Assembly: GCA_023205875.1 (NCBI GenBank)
Contig: CP060762.1
Coordinates: 310,001-374,000 of the forward strand
Reading direction: 5' to 3'
From: Chloropicon primus
Lineage: Eukaryota
Length of the DNA stretch: 64,000 bases
The position numbers and the translations under genes were made by a program. Positions within the stretch are counted from its first letter, which is position 1, and each line of letters starts with the position of its first letter. Of this stretch, positions 2,695 to 14,302 are shown in pieces. Below the pieces are notes generated by a model, which ran no database searches, had not been told where the DNA came from, and saw only the letters and a program-made list of their open reading frames with translations.

Positions 2695-2825
2695 GCTGCC
2701 TCTGCGTCGTTGAAGGGTTAGTCTCCTGAACCAAATACCGTTTTGTGTAATCTCATAATCTTTTACAATATCCTTTTCACGTTTTATTTGGCCCCCCCCC
2801 CTCCTTTGAGATTGTCTTGTCGTCG

Positions 2826-3869
2826 TCACGAGAAGAAGCTCTCTCGGTCGTTCAAAAGCACCTTCTGCCGCTTAGGATCTTTCTCCTCGTTGAGCTTTGC
2901 GATCTCACACATCGCTTGCTTGAACCTAGCAATGTCATCCAAGTCCACGAAAGTCACCAGCGGCAGCTTCAACTTTGATATGTCCCCGCCGTGATCTTCG
3001 AGCACGCCGCAACAGAACTCCACGATCCTCTTCGTGCAGTCCTCGATCTTCCCTACGTAGTCTGCCCTCAACTTTTTTCGGCAGTAGCTCTTCATCTCGG
3101 TCAAGTTCGTGAGGAGGAACACCATCGTTGGCCCGTCCTCCACCAAGCAAGGAGGCATGTGCGTCTTGAAGCGCTGGATGTAATCCTCGAACGAGTCCTT
3201 GAGAACCTCGATAGAAGGTATCAGAAATATCACCAAGTTATCAGGCCGTGTGTCGGGTAATGCAGAGTCCTCTTCCTCTTCCGCAATCCCGTCCCTGAAA
3301 TCAAAGTCTGAGTTGAGAATCCTCGTCTTTGCTGGAGCCCAGTCCGCGACTTCACCGTCGTCGAGAACCCCCATGATGTCCTTCACCGTGGTCTTGTACT
3401 CGCTCGTGAAGTAGGTCTCGAACACCTCGTAGTCGAAGTTGCTCGAGGCCTCCAGGAACGTCGCCAGGGCCAAGACCGACTCTTTATGCTCCAGCATCTT
3501 CTGGTTGCTCTCCGATCGAAATATTGCATCCATGTTTTTGCCTTTGAGCTCCACCGAAAGGTTCTCGACGGTGTCCAAGTGATGCTTCATATCCTCGTGC
3601 TCGCTCACCTTCAGCTTGGAGCACTTTTCGAGAAGTTCCTTGATCTTGTGCCGCCTGACGAAGAAGACAACCTTTTGACGCTCTTCGGCATCCAAGGGAT
3701 CCTCGCTGATGCTGATGATGCTCTTGTTGAGAAACCTGACGTGTTGGAAATACCGCTTCAGACACTTTGGCTCCAGCCCAAACACAACTCCCCTGTTGAC
3801 CTGGTCATGATCAATGTTGGAGAAGGAGATGTCCACGTTCTTTCTGCTCCTCCCAAAGCAGCAAAACAT
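2826..3869 (-). CDS. Divergent G-alpha-like pseudo-GTPase (paralog of 13148-14302)
   Basis: Intronless ORF starting MFCCFG; segments colinear with G-alpha (EYKTTVKDIM, LVIFLIP, GPTMVFLLTN); TGTAA on minus strand at 2763-2767. CDS is solid, family call is by eye. Confidence 0.55.
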   Translation of the reverse strand: MFCCFGRSRKNVDISFSNIDHDQVNRGVVFGLEPKCLKRYFQHVRFLNKSIISISEDPLDAEERQKVVFFVRRHKIKELLEKCSKLKVSEHEDMKHHLDTVENLSVELKGKNMDAIFRSESNQKMLEHKESVLALATFLEASSNFDYEVFETYFTSEYKTTVKDIMGVLDDGEVADWAPAKTRILNSDFDFRDGIAEEEEDSALPDTRPDNLVIFLIPSIEVLKDSFEDYIQRFKTHMPPCLVEDGPTMVFLLTNLTEMKSYCRKKLRADYVGKIEDCTKRIVEFCCGVLEDHGGDISKLKLPLVTFVDLDDIARFKQAMCEIAKLNEEKDPKRQKVLLNDRESFFS

Positions 3870-5328
3870 CTTGCAGCAAAACTTTTGTCTTCTCCTTGCA
3901 AAACTTTGTGCCAACACCAAGTTTCGTTTCTGTCTAGCAAGCAAAGCCAGCAAAGCCCTGGGAAGGCGCCTCTCCACTGGGTGGTCTCTCCACTGGGTCT
4001 GTCTCTGGAAGGGAAGGACTTACACAAAGGACACAGACGTCCGGCGGTTGGGTCTGGAGCTTAGGACTGGTTCCCTTGGCATGTCATGAGATCCAGGACG
4101 TCACGGCAATGTGTCACGGCAATGGCAATGCGCGGGCGGATCAATCCGTCGCGAGGCTTTGTCGGCCACTGGACTTGATGAGGCTTCCGCTTCCTTCGAG
4201 GAGAACACGAGAAGAGAGAGCGAGGGACGAAAAGGAAAGGAGAGGATCTTCGTTCTCGTTCGTTCCTTCGTCCTTTTTGCTTAATCAGAACCGACGAGAC
4301 GAGGAGAACTTGAGAAGAACTTTACAACATTGCTCGAGGAGAGGAACACGAACTCAAGCTCTTCCGTGGAGAAGTAATGCCATGGAGAAGAGAAAGAACT
4401 TGAGTTTGGGAGAAGTACTGTCACGAACGCAAAACGAACCTCTGCTCCTCGGATCGGAGGCCCAAACTTCCCAAACTTCCCAAACTTCCCAAACGAAGTT
4501 TCTTAGGGCTTTCTCTCCCTGGAGAAGAAATTTTTGATCAAATACCACAGTAGATCGATCCAAGGGCGGCCACGAGGAAGGTCGGCGATCAGGGCGCCTG
4601 TTGAGGACGAGGGGCGCGGTCAAGGCGGAGGGGAGGAAGACTGCTGGGTGGCGTGTCTCACGAGCTTTCCATAGACACCTCGCTTGACTCGTGGGGCGGT
4701 CTGCTCGGCCTGCGAGAGGCGGTTGACTTGGTTGTTGGGAGAAAAGAAGAGGGAGAGGCAGAGGACCACAGAGTGTTGACGAGGTGGAGGGGTCGAGCGA
4801 GAGGTGGAGGGAGAGCCTTTGCGTGGTGGACGAGGACGCCAGACCAAGCGTCGTGGTGGTGTCGATACGAGTGGGAGACGCCTTGGCAGGACGAACCAGA
4901 GTGAGTGTGTGAGAAAGACTCTTTCGCCTTTGGTTGCCAGCAAAGGGACAAGAATAACAACACAAAAGGATTTGGTTCTGTGTTCAGGGGAGAGGCCTGC
5001 TAGTGCAGCCGTTGCGAGCTCTTGGCATTGCTTGTTGGAGAATTTGATGGAACGCAGCACGCTTGCGCTTGGGGGAGACGGCGGGTACATATGAATCCGT
5101 GCCAAGGACTTCTTACAGGGAAGGAGAGGAGAGTTTGATAGACTAGACCGGGCCACAAGCAAACTTTGGATGCAGAGGGTTTGATCTTTGCGGACTTGGA
5201 CCTCGGCACTTGGTTGAGATTAGCTGGTCGGGAGACAAAGGCGGAAGCTTTGTCCCAAACACAACCAATATATATATATAGAGAGAGGAGAGGGACATAT
5301 TCTTTTGCCCGGGGGTTAGATCGATAGT

Positions 5329-8300
5329 ATGGGGGCAGAGAGAAGGAGGGCTGGGTCGTCCCAGCTTAAGCCAGGCCAAATGAGTGCCTTGCTGTCGCAG
5401 ACCTCGGGAGCTGCTGGGAACGTTTCAAGTGAGGAGGTGCGCACCGTATTCACCAACAGCAGCGACCACTTGTGGAGGAAGCAGATGCGGAACAACCGCA
5501 CGCGCACGGCAAAGTACACGATCATCACGTTCTTTCCTAGGTCGCTGTACGAGCAATTCAGGCGCGTTGCGAACGTTTACTTCACGCTGGTTGCGGGTTT
5601 GTCCCTGACGGATGTGAGTCCGGTACGGCCGTGGACCACCTTCACCCCGCTCGCCATCGTCCTGGGCGTCTCGTTGGTGAAGGAAGCGATCGAGGATTAT
5701 AAGAGGCACCAGGCCGATAAGAAGGAGAACGGCAGGCAAGTCGACGTGTGGTGCAAGGATAAGGTCGGGTGGAAGACGGTGAGGTGGGACCAAGTGAAGG
5801 TCGGGGATGTGGTGCGGGTCACCAGAGACCAAGGGTTTCCGGCGGACATTGTCCTCCTCTCTTCGGGGACGTCGGACGGGGTGTGCTACGTAGAGACAAT
5901 GAATTTAGATGGGGAAACGAACTTGAAGCTGAAGAAAGCAATTGGTGCGACGAATGGCATGGACACGTCGAACTTTGACGGCTTCAACACGGCGGTGCAG
6001 TGCGATCTGCCGAATCCGAGCTTGTACACGTTCACCGGGAACATACACTTGCTTGGGCAGCCACCGCAAAGGAGGGGAAGCGAAGATCAGTCCGCAAGAA
6101 GCAGGGCGGGGAGTGCTTCTTCGGTGGGATCCAGGGGCAGGAGTGGGAGCGGAGCCTCGGTGGAGGGGAGCGAGCAACTTCCCAGGACGAGGTCAAAGGT
6201 GAATTACGAGATTAAGACCTATCCAGTGAGCCCCGAGTCCATCTTGCTCCGTGGGTCCAACCTGAGGAACACCGAAGTGGTCTACGGTGTGGTCGTTTAC
6301 ACCGGCCACGAGTCCAAGGTCATGATGAATGCGACCGAGCCGCCCTCGAAGCGCTCCAGCTTGGAGAAAAGCATTGATTCCGTGATCATGTTTCAGTTCA
6401 CGCTTCTCTTCTTCATGTGCGTCTCGGGAAGCGTCCTCTCCGGGTTTTGGCACGAGTACTACGGCTACCAGCACTGGTACCTCGCGTTAGATGACAAGCC
6501 CAAGGAGTTCACTCCAGAGGACAAGATCAAGGTCATGGGTCTGAGTTTCATCACTTCCTTCATACTTTACGGTTATCTCATCCCGATCTCGCTCTACGTC
6601 TGCGTGGAGATGGTGAAGATCGTGCAAGCCATGATTTACATCAGGTGCGACCGGGAGATGTACCACGAGGAGACGGACACGGCCGCTCTAGCGAGGACGT
6701 CTAACCTGAACGAGGAGCTGGGGATGATTGACACCGTGCTGACGGACAAGACAGGAACTTTGACTTGCAATGTCATGGAGTTCTTCAAATGCAGCATCAA
6801 CGGCAAGACTTACGGAACTGGCGTGAACGAGATCGAGAAGGCCAACTCGCTGAGGAAAGGGCTCACGATTGACCAGATCATGGAAGGGAGCAACCAGAGA
6901 ACTTCGGAGCCCGTGAAAGGATTCAGTTTCTACGACGAGGAGGTCTCCGACTTTGCGTGGACGGGGCACAAGGACGTGAAAGAGATCCAGATGTTCCTGC
7001 AGCTGCTCGCGGTGTGCCACACAGTGGTGCCCGAAGGCGAGGCGGACGACATTAACTACCAGGCCGAGTCTCCGGACGAAGAGGCGCTGGTGTTGGCCGC
7101 AAAAGAGATGGGGTACAAGTGCGTCAAGAGGAACCTGAACTCGCTGTTTGTGCAGGAGAGGGACCTCGGCGGCGAGATCAAGGAAAAGGAATACAAGATT
7201 TTGCACGTCCTTGAGTTCACCTCCGCCAGGAAGAGGCAGTCCGTCATTTTTAAGACACCGGAGGGAGAAATCATCCTTGGCTGCAAAGGAGCAGACAACG
7301 TCATTTACGACAGGCTTGCGGAGCGAACAGGAGAGGTCCAGGAAAACACACAGGATCACTTGAATGCCTACGCGCAGGCTGGGCTCAGAACGCTGTGCAT
7401 AAGTTACAGGAAGCTGTCCGACGAGGTGTACAGCGAGTTTCACAAGAAGTGGACGGAAGCAAAGACGGCTCTGTCGGACAGAGACGTCAAGGTGGAAGCG
7501 GTGAACGACAAGATCGAGCGGGAGCTGATCCTTGTGGGCGCGACGGCGATCGAAGACAGGTTGCAGGACAAGGTGCCTCAGTGCCTCGAATTGCTTGCGA
7601 ACGCGGGGCTTCGCATATGGATGTTGACAGGGGATAAGCTGGAAACGGCTGTCAACATCGGGTACGCTTGCAGCTTGCTGACGGACAGCATGTCCGTGCA
7701 CACCGTGCAGCTGAACTTGGGGGATACCAGGCTGTCTGTTGACTCCACCCACGAAGAGAGGTCCAAGGTTTTCACGCTCCAGGTGACGGAGCAGTTCGCG
7801 AAGATCAGTAAGAGGGTCATGAAGGGCACTGACCTGCATGCGCTGGTGATCGAGGGAAATGCGCTCGCCTATGCAATTACTCCAGAGAACGCGGACTCTC
7901 TTATAGATATCTGCGGCTCTTGCGCGTCGGTGATATGCTGCCGCGTTAGTCCAAGGCAGAAAGCACAAGTCACAGAGCTTGTGAAGCTCAGCGGGGCGAC
8001 AACTTTGGCGATTGGTGACGGGGCAAACGATGTTGGGATGATACAAGCAGCCCACATTGGCGTCGGAATCAGTGGCAAAGAAGGCATGCAGGCAGTCATG
8101 AGCAGCGACTTTGCGATTGCGCAGTTCAAATTCCTGGAGAGGCTGGTTCTCTTGCATGGCAGGATATCCTACAAGAGGCTCGGAAGAATGGTTGGGTACT
8201 TCTTCTACAAGAACATTGTGCTGGGTCTGTGCTTGTACTTTTACAACTCGCAAGCGTTCTTTAGTGGGCAAACCCTGTTCGACGACTTTTATCTGAGTTG

Positions 8301-9259: not shown

Positions 9260-12038
9260 TCACGGTTGTCGCAAACTGTTATATATCTCTTTCGTAAACC
9301 TTGTGGACGCCTGCAGTCCGTTGAGATAGGCTTCGAAATTGTGCAGAACGGAATCTCGAGATCCACGTCGTTGGCTCTTCCTCTTTGTGAGCATCCTGAT
9401 CACCCTCTTATTCGCCTTCGCTTTCTCCACCGCTTGCGTCAAAAGTGCAAGCTCCTTCTTGGAATGCTTTGAGCAGGCAAAGACCGGGCTCTTTGCCCGC
9501 GACGAGGATTCCTCGCGATCACTCTCAACAACCTTTGTCTCAATTTTGCGCTTCTCTTTGGCAGCAGCGTCCTCAGTCTGGCACCCTTCGCTCCGCAGCA
9601 CGACCCTCTCCATGTTCTGCTTCTCCATCGTTTTGGAAAGCAGATCCAGCTGCTGCTCCAAGAGCACTTCGCTGAACTTGTCAAATGTCACTTTCATTTC
9701 CTCCTTCAAGTCCTCTTTTGTGACGTACACGTCCTGCTTCAGGACGGACTCCTCCACGGCTGATATCTTGTTCGATATGGCGCCGAGACTCTCGCAGAGG
9801 CTCTGATGCTCCTTTGCCTGCTCGCTGTTCATGAAGTCACAACGCCCCCCAATTCTGGAGAGGCTCTCGGCATGCTCGGCGCTCTTCCTCTCCAGGTTGT
9901 TCCCGATCTCCGCAAGACCATCCGTGATGCACGCTGACACGGATTCAAATCGACCCTCGAGGATCTTCTGAAGACTCTCTGCTACATTTTGGTGGCTCCC
10001 AACAATGTCGGACACGCTCTCAATGATTTCTTTCCCCATCTCCTTCACGGCGGAGTTCTCCCTCTCGCTCGCGTCGCCCTTGCCGGCTTCGATCGAGGTG
10101 CTCACGATCCGAACTGCGCTTGTGATCTCACCCAGCATTTGGACTATCTCGTCGCTTTGCCCTCCCTGGGCTCGCACGAGCTGCGATAACTCGCGGTCCT
10201 TCTCGGCGAGCTGGGCCGTGACAGAGTTCCTGAACTCCTCCAGCTCCTTCGCGACAGCATCGAAGCTTCCGTGTTGCTCGGGGAGGACGGGCTTTGCATC
10301 GGGTAGCACGTCTTGCTTCTTTGACTTGTCCATCAACTTGTTCAATTGTCGCAGTATCTCGTCCTTTTGGCCCGCGACGGTGGAATTAAAATTTTCAGCC
10401 ATCTGAAACTTTTCTCTCGACAGCTCCGACACTCGCGAAATCAGGCTTTCGATTTCCTGCCTCTGGGTCTCCACCACCGATTTCAGTTCCACCTTCTCCT
10501 TCCTTCCTTCCTCCTTTGCGGCTTCCAAGGACTCTGAGAGCCGCTTCGAGTACCTGCGCTCGTTCTCGAGATTGCTCTTGAACTTGTCCACCTGCGACAC
10601 AAGCAAAGTCTTGGCCGCCTCCTCTTTGCCCATCAAGTCGCTCATCATATCGATCTCTCCTTTGAGCTGAGTCAACAAATTGGCCTGGGCCTCGCTCGTC
10701 ACGATCTTGCCCCCCTTCTCCTCGACCCTCTTCGACGAGCCGAGCTCCTCCGCGCTGGACTGAGTTTTTCGAGTCTCCTCCAGGACCTTGGTGCCCATTG
10801 CAGCAACGCACTTCTCCAGTGCCTCGCCTACTTGCTTCTTCAAGCCATCGAATGCGTTCGCTTGCAGCTTCCTCAACCCATCGATGTCCTCCTTTGTCGC
10901 CCTCTCCTCGTCCACGTCAATCACCAAGCGGAGCTGCAGGGGATCAAAAGCAGCTTCTTTCTTCGGCGTGTGGCTCAGCTCTGATCCTGGCACCGCGTAC
11001 CCACCAGGTGCGGGAAGGGGCGAGAGCGTCGCACCGCCATTCAGTCTCTCAATCCTGCGCGGCGATCCCTTCTTCTTCGATCCCTTGGGAGTGCGGGGAG
11101 ACAGGCTTGGGGGAGAAGCGGAGTGCTTGTTTAGCTCTATCGCCGCGAGGGCTCTGCCTCGCTTGGACCTGCTGCTCGAATTCAAGATGGAGCGGGTCGA
11201 AACGGACGTCGTCAAGTTTGAGTCCGAATCCATCGCAGGCGTGCTTCTTCCCGACCGATCTGACACTTCCCTCATCCGCGATTCTCTTGGGCTAGTCTTG
11301 CTGCCTTTGCTCTTCCTCCGCTTGGACGTCGCCGCCGTTGCCTTTCGCCAGGACAAGTCGCTGTTGCTGCTGGTCGTCGTGGAGAGCGACACGTCCGACT
11401 CGCTGTCGCCGAATTCCTTGGAAAACACCTGCCTCTCCTTGTAAAGGGGGTTCTGCTGACTCAACTCGTCGTCCTCGAGGTGTTGCCGCGTGTCCACGTC
11501 GATCGAAGCCAGCCGCAGTGGCGGGAGCACCTTCCTCTCTTTCCCCTTCCCACCGCTGCCCGTCCTGCCCTTGGACCTCTTGCTGTTCGTCACATCTCCC
11601 AGAACTTTAGGCCTGCTGGTCCTCTGTGCCTCTCGCGCAGCTTTCACCTTGTCCTTGTACAAGCCGTCCAGCGGGTGAGCCCACTGGCTCCTCTTCGTGC
11701 GGGAGTCGTAATAAAACCTTCAGAACGAGCTTGGGTTAGTTGAGGCACGGATGCGCCAAGAATGTGTCACGGATGAACCCAGCTTACCTCCTCTTTCCCT
11801 TCTCTGGCGTCCTTCCTTCTTCCCAACCTTTGGGAAGTGGAGCAGAGAGGCCTTCCTGGGCCAAGGACTTGCCGAACACGGCGTACTCGTTCTCCTTCAC
11901 TCCAAGGTACTTTGCATAAGATCGAAGCTCCGACTCTTCGAGGTCCTTCCCTTGCCTCAGACGCTCGGAAGCTGCGTTGATCTCCGCCATCTCCTCGTCG
12001 GGAGACGACAAATCAAAGTGCTGGACCACGGCAGTCAT
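9260..12038 (-). CDS. CEP164-like WW-domain/coiled-coil protein; exons 12038-11788 and 11717-9260
   Basis: Spliced N-terminus YAKYLGV..LAQEGLSAPLPKGWEE..R|FYYDSRTKRSQWAHPLD resembles the CEP164 N-terminal WW module; intron GTAAGC..CTAAC..AAG keeps frame; long coiled coil follows. Confidence 0.72.
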
Positions 12039-13147: not shown

Positions 13148-14302
13148 ATGGACGTTCTGAGGTCGTGCTGCGGTGCACCTGAAGGGTCTAGGTACAAGGC
13201 AAAGGCGGAGAGCCAGGGTTTAGAGGACCGCCCCGTGGTGGCCAACCCTTGGCACGTCAATGTTGGCGTGTTTGGCCCAAACAATTCGGGAAAGAACACC
13301 TTCCTGAAGCAAGTGATGTACACGACAAACGCGATGACGCCTCGCTTGGCCGGCGCTTTGGTGTTCCACGCCAGGAAGCACTGGGTCAGCGAGGTGGTGA
13401 ACCGCCTGAGAGCATTGGAGGACTTTGGAGAAAAGAAGAAAGTCAAGAAGTTTGCCAAGGAGGTCAAAGCGATGAACGAGCTCAAGAGGAGGCTTGAGAG
13501 TCATACGAAGGAGCCTTACGATAAGGCCACGAAGATGATATCCACGTATCACTCTCGTTTATTCAAGCTGTTGGACGGCATCAGGGGTGACATCTTTGAA
13601 CGCGAGGACGAGTACCTGCAGTGCAGGAGTGCCTTCTCCCTGGACCCTCGGCCACCTCCGCTCCAGCTCACCTTCAAGTTCAAGCACAACATCCATCCGA
13701 CCAACTTCAGTCCGGTGGATTACAAGACAGAGAACTTCCAGTTCAAGTTCTTTCACTCGTACTACAATTCCTTGACGGAGCAGATGGAGGTGGAGGACCT
13801 TGGGAGGGAGCTCGACATGATGATCCTCCTCTTCTCTGCGGCGGACGTGATCGAGGAGGGGAAGTTCGAGGAGTCCGTGAGAAACCACAAGTGGATCCTG
13901 GACATTGCCCTGAACGAGTACGGGCCGACCACGATCATCGTCCTGTCGAACATCGACGTGCTAGACGACTTTTGTACCAAGAATAACTTGAGTATCTCGA
14001 AAGAGTTAGAAAAGGCCACGGACTTTCTCGCCGAGGAGTTCAACGACATCAGCGAGAACTTGCCGAAGACGCCGCACATCGAAGCGATGGACCTCACCAA
14101 AGGAAAGTTCTTTTACAGGATTCTCAAGACCATCAACTCCGCTATGGTGGAGGAGGTCGAAGGGATGCCGCTCAAGCAGTACAAGGAGCAGAGGAAGAAG
14201 AACTACCTCAAATCGGTTTACAGCATCGGCGGACGGAGGGGAAGCCAGGTGACGATGTCCAGCGAGTTGGTCAGGGCGAGCTTCGAGGGGGACTTCAATT
14301 GA
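13148..14302 (+). CDS. Divergent heterotrimeric G-protein alpha-like protein
   Basis: N-terminal Cys pair (SCCG), P-loop GPNNSGKNTFLKQ, helical insert, EYLQCR, FQFKFF, MILLFSAAD, TIIVLSNID; TGTAA at 14347-14351. Confidence 0.68.
   Translation: MDVLRSCCGAPEGSRYKAKAESQGLEDRPVVANPWHVNVGVFGPNNSGKNTFLKQVMYTTNAMTPRLAGALVFHARKHWVSEVVNRLRALEDFGEKKKVKKFAKEVKAMNELKRRLESHTKEPYDKATKMISTYHSRLFKLLDGIRGDIFEREDEYLQCRSAFSLDPRPPPLQLTFKFKHNIHPTNFSPVDYKTENFQFKFFHSYYNSLTEQMEVEDLGRELDMMILLFSAADVIEEGKFEESVRNHKWILDIALNEYGPTTIIVLSNIDVLDDFCTKNNLSISKELEKATDFLAEEFNDISENLPKTPHIEAMDLTKGKFFYRILKTINSAMVEEVEGMPLKQYKEQRKKNYLKSVYSIGGRRGSQVTMSSELVRASFEGDFN

Follow-up and report, generated by a model that had tools for sequence, protein, structure and literature searches.

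What becomes of a G-protein alpha subunit (G-alpha) that has lost its switch? The question is raised by 64,000 nucleotides from the genome of Chloropicon primus, a very small green alga of the sea (GenBank assembly GCA_023205875.1, contig CP060762.1, positions 310,001 to 374,000 of the forward strand), called the window here; all positions are counted from its first letter. Two of its genes, A and B, carry the same-species entries A3770_09p55200 and A3770_09p55230, both annotated as hypothetical, as an earlier note made from the letters of the window had expected. Gene A (2826–3869, minus strand) is a single-exon open reading frame (ORF) of 347 aa with an ATG start, a predicted G-alpha fold and degenerate G boxes. 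Its paralog, gene B (13148–14302, plus strand), encodes 384 aa and keeps GPNNSGKNT, the G4 Asp (SNID) and the G5 Ala (EAMD), with G2 and G3 lost. The earlier note had read the pair as membrane-tethered, catalytically dead G-alpha-fold proteins born of an old duplication. Its 347-aa ORF, all of its quoted sequence blocks, EYKTTVKDIM and GLEPKCLK are present in the translations. Our analysis points to A as a G-alpha derivative that is predicted to act without nucleotide.

A and B are linked paralogs

A and B lie 9.3 kb apart, and BLASTP joins them at E 5e-5 over a single 56-aa segment. Their Smith-Waterman score of 77 is above chance: 2000 shuffles gave a mean of 38 and a maximum of 71 (0/2000 as high), and the count was 1/2000 with local-window shuffles and 1/2000 with BLOSUM45. 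B was also the best partner of A among all window frames of at least 150 aa (next best score 57). A profile-profile comparison of five A-type with five B-type proteins gave a probability of 95% and E 3.4e-8 over 304 columns; the alignment runs colinearly, starting at the N-terminal CC and reaching the last helix, and pairs the same blocks as the earlier note. The A-type profile scored B at E 1.6e-19 and found no third family member among the 915 six-frame segments of the window; copies elsewhere in C. primus were assessed through protein searches. Homolog lists held four matches for A and five for B, each including the same-species entry. Full-length rows of the two types are 13–19% identical, so the duplication is old, as had been proposed. 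A is therefore a full-length paralog of B, homologous to it and linked with it.

The neighbourhood is shared by related genomes. Two loci, L001 and L004, together keep the order CDK-BASS-A-P4-ATPase-coiled-coil-B, and a third, L003, keeps the divergent P4-ATPase. In C. roscoffensis the A and B orthologs are three locus tags apart. The A and B protein clusters have equal-sized longest contigs in three lineages, which hints at a wider A-B linkage.

The predicted fold of A and its sequence link to G-alpha

In the AlphaFold model, A runs through a strand, a helix and a helical insert (residues 61–171), followed by five strands with helices in G-alpha order. The all-helical insertion (3357–3689, minus strand) was mostly modelled at a predicted local distance difference test (pLDDT) score of 76–94, was aligned in the structure searches and would be the G-alpha-specific helical domain. 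As in G-alpha, it is predicted to sit between alpha1 and switch I of the Ras-like domain. All 42 rows listed by Foldseek for this model were G-alpha entries (best E 2.3e-6, template modelling (TM) score about 0.4). In a search of 48,161 chains independent of Foldseek, the top four matches were again G-alpha: Gi1 (Z 15.6, root-mean-square deviation (rmsd) 6.9, 264 residues aligned), Gs (15.3), rice (15.1) and Entamoeba (14.8), with 249–267 residues aligned at rmsd 5.7–6.9. The best match outside G-alpha was RagD (Z 12.9, 169 aligned), and a second structure comparison with G-alpha gave Z up to 17.1. As far as the model can be trusted, both searches favour the G-alpha fold suggested by the earlier note.

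A sequence link comes from profiles. The combined A and B profile, run against 1.84 billion representative proteins, gave 16 matches: 15 family members or fragments and P0108, a true G-alpha (Pfam G-alpha 6e-65) and the best outside match at E 7.2e-5. The A profile aligned with P0108 over 170 columns, from before beta1 through switch I to beta3 (E 4.7e-5, probability 68%); for the B profile the aligned stretch was 59 columns (E 2.2e-6). Two B orthologs matched the Pfam G-alpha family at 1.7e-4 and 3.7e-4, and one A ortholog matched it at 0.28 in the switch I region. The PF00503 gathering cut-off (48.8 bits) was not reached by any of these proteins: A and B had no match and the best relatives scored 21 bits. 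Pfam and PDB searches with A, B and their profiles returned nothing significant for A, and the weak matches were unrelated. In the Atlas, B lies nearest G-alpha/XLG (0.88). A two-copy complex prediction for residues 20–332 of A, made without an alignment, scored 0.00 and carries no weight either way. On the strength of the fold and profile matches, we consider descent of the A/B family from G-alpha very likely.

A different source, either a GTPase outside G-alpha with a separately acquired helical insert or a G-alpha from a giant virus, would fit the Atlas neighbours of A, which are AIG1/MMR_HSR1 GTPases, and the Orpheovirus G-alpha models, which match at E 2e-5. However, both the position of the insert and the switch I sequence agree with G-alpha, viral G-alphas match no more closely than those of cells (11% identity), and no relative was found on viral contigs (A1 pattern in 0/133 stretches, A2 pattern in 0/13). 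The GC content at third codon positions of A (0.76) is also similar to that of its neighbours. We regard such an origin as highly improbable.

Degenerate G boxes

The nucleotide-binding motifs of A, all on the minus strand, are reduced to remnants. At G1, GLEPKCLKR (3753–3779) aligns without gaps with GPKGSGKNT of P0108 and GPNNSGKNT of B. The G1 motif GxxxxGK[S/T] is near-intact in B, but none of the 10 A-type domains spanning this site retains it, which bears out the claimed loss of the P-loop in A. The switch I/G2 remnant, EYKTTVKDIMGVLDDG (3354–3401), aligns to TDYHPTDQDIILVKDK of P0108; it has Leu169 at what we take, from the general G-alpha consensus, to be the arginine-finger position and Gly172 at the presumed position of the Mg-binding Thr. 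The G3 consensus is DxxGQ. By model and alignment, A has DGIAE here (3279–3293), which retains the Asp but neither the Gly nor the Gln and leads into an acidic variable loop; B has HSYYN. The model shows no switch II helix between beta3 and beta4, its place in G-alpha.

At the end of model strand 248–254 lies the G4 remnant TNLT (3099–3110), in which NKxD is lost, and at the end of strand 304–307 the G5 remnant VTFVD (2943–2957), with Phe at the position where Ala is the consensus. Their registers with P0108 (FLNKTD and TCMTD, respectively) were set by eye because MAFFT misplaced P0108 in this region. The B equivalents are SNID and IEAMD. A thus lacks the switch I Arg and Thr, the G3 DxxGQ, the G4 NKxD and a TCAT-type G5, and the motif loss is common to all A-type domains aligned. 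G-box residues vary from one A ortholog to the next, which a relaxed pocket would predict, while conservation in 8 or more of 9 A-type domains is seen at 31 other columns.

We conclude that A is probably nucleotide-free. To judge from its motifs, B may bind nucleotide without hydrolysing it, because its G1, its G4 Asp and its G5 Ala are preserved. The proposal of a catalytically dead pair is therefore sustained for A and needs qualification for B.

A could instead be a sensor that still holds a nucleotide or small ligand in its interdomain cleft, without hydrolysis. Both domains of the architecture are preserved, most A-type domains retain the G3 Asp, K38 is present in 8/9, and R72/R73, D176 and W177 are near-invariant. 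Set against this, the P-loop Gly-Lys has been replaced by bulky residues that differ among orthologs, NKxD is gone, and Phe occupies the G5 Ala position. We think a sensor of this kind quite unlikely.

The N-terminus

Cys3-Cys4 (3858–3863, minus strand) form a likely S-acylation site, the acylation being predicted from the motif, and they are not preceded by Gly2. A Cys pair occurs within the first 15 residues of 5/6 full-length A-type proteins, of the fragment P0107 and of 4/5 B-type proteins. Gly2 occurs in none of the A-type or B-type proteins, and A and B have no transmembrane stretch. The candidate lipidation motif of A thus consists of a conserved Cys pair with Gly2 missing, and the membrane tethering claimed for the pair would depend on these cysteines.

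Selection and broken alleles

The ratio of nonsynonymous to synonymous substitution rates (dN/dS) of A against C. roscoffensis-type orthologs is 0.18 (L001) and 0.21 (L002), against 0.31 for A with L003, 0.16 for B and 0.04–0.30 for neighbouring genes, with dS near saturation. Full-length A orthologs exist in at least five lineages. A is under purifying selection. The earlier note had called A the more eroded copy, which is true of its G boxes and not of the gene: besides its low dN/dS (0.18–0.21), A is expressed and folds with higher confidence than B (pLDDT 69 vs 49).

Two A orthologs are broken. L001 has a stop (8086–8088) where L002 has Ser, and in the corresponding protein cluster 2/15 listed entries (9 contigs) end at the stop residue, one (21 contigs) is the downstream piece and 11 (152 contigs) are full-length. 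L003 has a one-base frameshift (2940–2945); in its cluster, 6/15 listed entries (21 contigs) start just past it and seven (13 contigs) are full-length. These counts are upper bounds, with one locus each seen as DNA and with later gene-caller starts, repeated samples and assembly errors as possible contributors.

These alleles bear on a further alternative, that A is left over from lost G-protein signalling, can be dispensed with and is drifting towards a pseudogene. The L001 nonsense and L003 frameshift changes, each matched by fragments in the protein clusters, fit this, as does the faster evolution of A compared to its housekeeping neighbours. However, dN/dS of 0.18–0.31 (at near-saturated dS), the spread of full-length orthologs, expression and a tandem expansion in the family all speak against drift, and we hold this to be improbable.

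In one related species the B ortholog is also found as an 85-aa piece and a piece beginning at residue 86 (P0103, P0088 and P0091 versus P0104 and P0045). The split falls at the codon homologous to the break in the A ortholog of the same species, and on these protein data may be a shared intron site, a slip in a run of G or an assembly error.

A candidate nucleotide-free scaffold

On balance we favour the reading that A is an S-acylated scaffold, a pseudo-G-alpha that works without G-beta-gamma. An ancestral G-alpha would have given rise to A and B by duplication before the sampled species diverged, and S-acylation of Cys3/Cys4 would anchor A at the membrane. Because nucleotide, a switch II helix and a clear N-terminal helix are all predicted to be missing, A would be locked in one state, acting as a scaffold instead of a switch. 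It may bind partners other than G-beta-gamma through surfaces conserved in the subfamily (K38-F41-R45, F69-R72-R73, G172-D176-W177-P179 and C241-G246-P247). A four-domain tandem relative would fit a binding module multiplied for avidity.

Several observations weigh against this reading. The model of A is middling (pLDDT 69, predicted TM score 0.59, from an alignment of 5 sequences), and its agreement with G-alpha structures is loose, with TM scores of only 0.35–0.46, rmsd of 6–10 Å and 8–14% identity; the high rmsd probably reflects the orientation of the helical domain. The N-terminal 22 residues are modelled at low confidence, so that the missing N-terminal helix is not established, and the model of B is poor (best Z 8.1, to a Gq chain). 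A alone has no significant sequence match in Pfam or PDB, and in the Atlas it lies nearest to generic P-loop GTPases (0.84) and not to G-alpha. The by-eye registers of G4 and G5 belong here too, as do the tandem protein and P0098, from which the Cys pair is missing. Finally, because broken alleles recur in two related species, the role of A is non-essential there.

A shares with G-alpha (PF00503; Gi1, Gs, Gq, rice RGA1, Entamoeba EhG-alpha1) the predicted two-domain fold with its helical insert after alpha1, a size of about 350 aa, N-terminal cysteines and a switch I-like stretch. It differs in its degenerate G1–G5, in lacking Gly2 and, in the model, the switch II helix, in an identity of 8–14%, in falling below Pfam detection, and in a family that includes a tandem multi-domain form.

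Two other known systems are close to A. XLG2, one of the plant extra-large G proteins (XLGs), is G-alpha-derived, binds nucleotide poorly or not at all and acts independently of it, according to 10.1101/795088 and PMC8584482. A resembles it in being G-alpha-derived and predicted to be nucleotide-free and nucleotide-independent. However, the XLGs carry a long extension at the N-terminus, retain binding to G-beta-gamma and RGS and can readily be identified as G-alpha, whereas A has no extension (its first strand is at residue 25 of the model), is far more diverged and is found in a chlorophyte. The second system is the class i pseudoGTPases AAGAB and Irc6. PMC12490416 describes AAGAB as such a protein, a precedent for a GTPase fold without G motifs serving as a protein-binding module. 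A shares this combination, the fold being predicted in its case. AAGAB has a small-GTPase-type domain and biochemical proof, whereas A has a G-alpha helical domain and is known from sequence and model. By its predicted properties, A would act much as class i pseudoGTPases do, or as an XLG taken to an extreme, and it belongs neither to functional G-alpha nor to the XLGs.

Canonical G-alphas of C. primus

Three genes, A3770_02p14290, A3770_08p51700 and A3770_08p51710, are G-alpha by the authors' annotation in the C. primus gene table (Supplementary Data 2 of PMC6731263), and we set them beside A and B on that annotation only. All three have an expression value of 0, and none is matched by the combined A and B profile. 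Two of the three match only Klebsormidium among the green algae compared (E 6e-29 and 2e-17); A and B have no BLAST match in any green alga of the table.

In the same table A has an expression value of 12.97 and B of 0, with 76.89 for BASS, 1.09 for the P4-ATPase and 130.63 for VPS2, values that we take, on the strength of the main text, to be RNA-seq depth. Expression of A beside a silent B and silent annotated G-alphas invites another explanation, in which A is a decoy like Arabidopsis XLG2 that sequesters G-beta-gamma, RGS or a receptor in vegetative cells and so holds a cryptic G-protein pathway inactive before a sexual or flagellate stage is reached. Flagellar genes are indeed retained at low levels (IFT80 0.51, IFT122 0.45), and XLG2 offers a precedent (10.1101/795088). 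However, no G-beta label (GNB, K04536, K07972) occurs in about 6,460 of the 8,639 gene rows, the sole RGS label among these rows is a secondary KEGG Orthology assignment on a hypothetical protein, and the switch II loop of A has no helix in the model and is variable in length. We therefore rate the decoy as unlikely.

A bolder extension of the scaffold reading receives slightly more credence from us and is still doubtful. G-alpha would have become a nucleotide-free, multipliable module, used as acylated single copies and a four-domain tandem, active in vegetative cells without G-beta-gamma beside silent, switch-like G-alphas reserved for a hidden life stage; the broken alleles would mark a host factor selected for loss, for example by viruses.

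PMC3718340, PMC3386157 and PMC8584482 report G-protein subunits as missing from sequenced chlorophytes or unicellular algae. G proteins are not discussed in the passages searched of either Chloropicon genome paper, the A and B loci are not listed in the 2025 Chloropicon supplement, and a term search of PMC12716839 and PMC13185490 added nothing on the family. Our searches of openly available full texts found no description of the A/B family, and a tandem chain of G-alpha folds was not met in the papers searched. Given the annotated genes, A and B are not the first chlorophyte G-alphas but rather an unrecognised dead subfamily. Chloropicon keeps at least five G-alpha-type genes, two of which neither Pfam nor BLAST detects; where G-alpha has been called absent from other green algae, failed detection may therefore be part of the reason, and a fold search could retest such calls. 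A illustrates what G-alpha can turn into after loss of the switch.

A larger family with a tandem form

The two-gene family proposed earlier holds as a paralogy and is too small. P0096, a metagenome protein of 1216 aa whose cluster has 8 members and contigs of up to 35.6 kb, contains half a domain and three whole A-type domains that are mutually 32–37% identical. P0101 (164 aa), likewise from metagenomes, is the complementary N-terminal half, and the longest contig of its cluster has the same length, 35,558, as that of the P0096 cluster. From these protein data, the two are likely one four-domain gene split by an intron or a break. P0098 and P0100 represent a further paralog type.

In a tree rooted on one long branch (P0108), from which three half-length rows were excluded, the B group (100/99) and five A orthologs (98/96) were recovered, and the tandem domains and P0098 had no resolved placement. 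A homolog search with P0108 returned only P0108 itself, and with this single long-branch outgroup the tree cannot place the family.

Three A orthologs (P0105, P0107 and P0004) run into low-complexity sequence or end early, which suggests introns in other lineages.

Locus, transcription and gene model

The gene order in the window is CDK, BASS transporter, A, P4-ATPase (A3770_09p55210), coiled-coil gene, B and VPS2. An unspliced RNA contig (2791–4512) spans the A ORF and comes from a run in which the BASS intron has been removed. In a second run, two separate pieces together account for most of the A ORF. The other two runs have no contig over A, and none of the four has one over B, over the P4-ATPase or over the greater part of the coiled-coil gene; contigs cannot show absence. 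The comparison used 4 of 11 listed runs; the first two runs are only presumed to be RNA. A is a live, intact, unspliced and transcribed Chloropicon gene.

The RNA contig lacks 9 nt at 3707, in agreement with the 344-aa variant P0001. At 3707–3715 the window has a 9-nt tandem indel that separates 347- and 344-aa alleles and lies in a low-confidence loop.

For A in the reference strain, the public gene model (QDZ23002) has 314 aa and omits about residues 40–72 (3656–3752). We reject its annotated intron, which the RNA contigs retain and in which a one-base correction is fixed: the authors' variant table (Supplementary Data 7) places a one-base insertion at allele frequency 1 within it. The intron is therefore probably a patch over an assembly error, and the 314-aa model a mis-annotation. 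A bacterial-type GTG start at 3977 was also rejected, as the host is eukaryotic and the orthologs begin MFCC.

The spacer of more than 1 kb noted upstream of A measures 1,459 nt to the start of the divergent P4-ATPase. It is not a special feature, and about 640 nt of it is transcribed leader (3870–4512, minus strand; at least 643 nt in RNA contig 2791–4512) with four short upstream ATG frames of 2–20 codons. Strain-level indels occur in this leader at 4153–4213.

TGTAA is the usual green-algal poly(A) signal. It is present downstream of both genes, as had been noted, 59 nt past the stop of A (2763–2767, minus strand) and 45 nt past that of B, and is ordinary because BASS, the coiled-coil gene and VPS2 carry it too.

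The coiled-coil gene between A and B (9260–11662, minus strand; expression 0.12) has no Pfam match and is fast-evolving, with 40–44% identity to a syntenic ortholog. The BASS transporter gene has a 144-nt GT-AG intron (1604–1747) that is spliced in all four runs.
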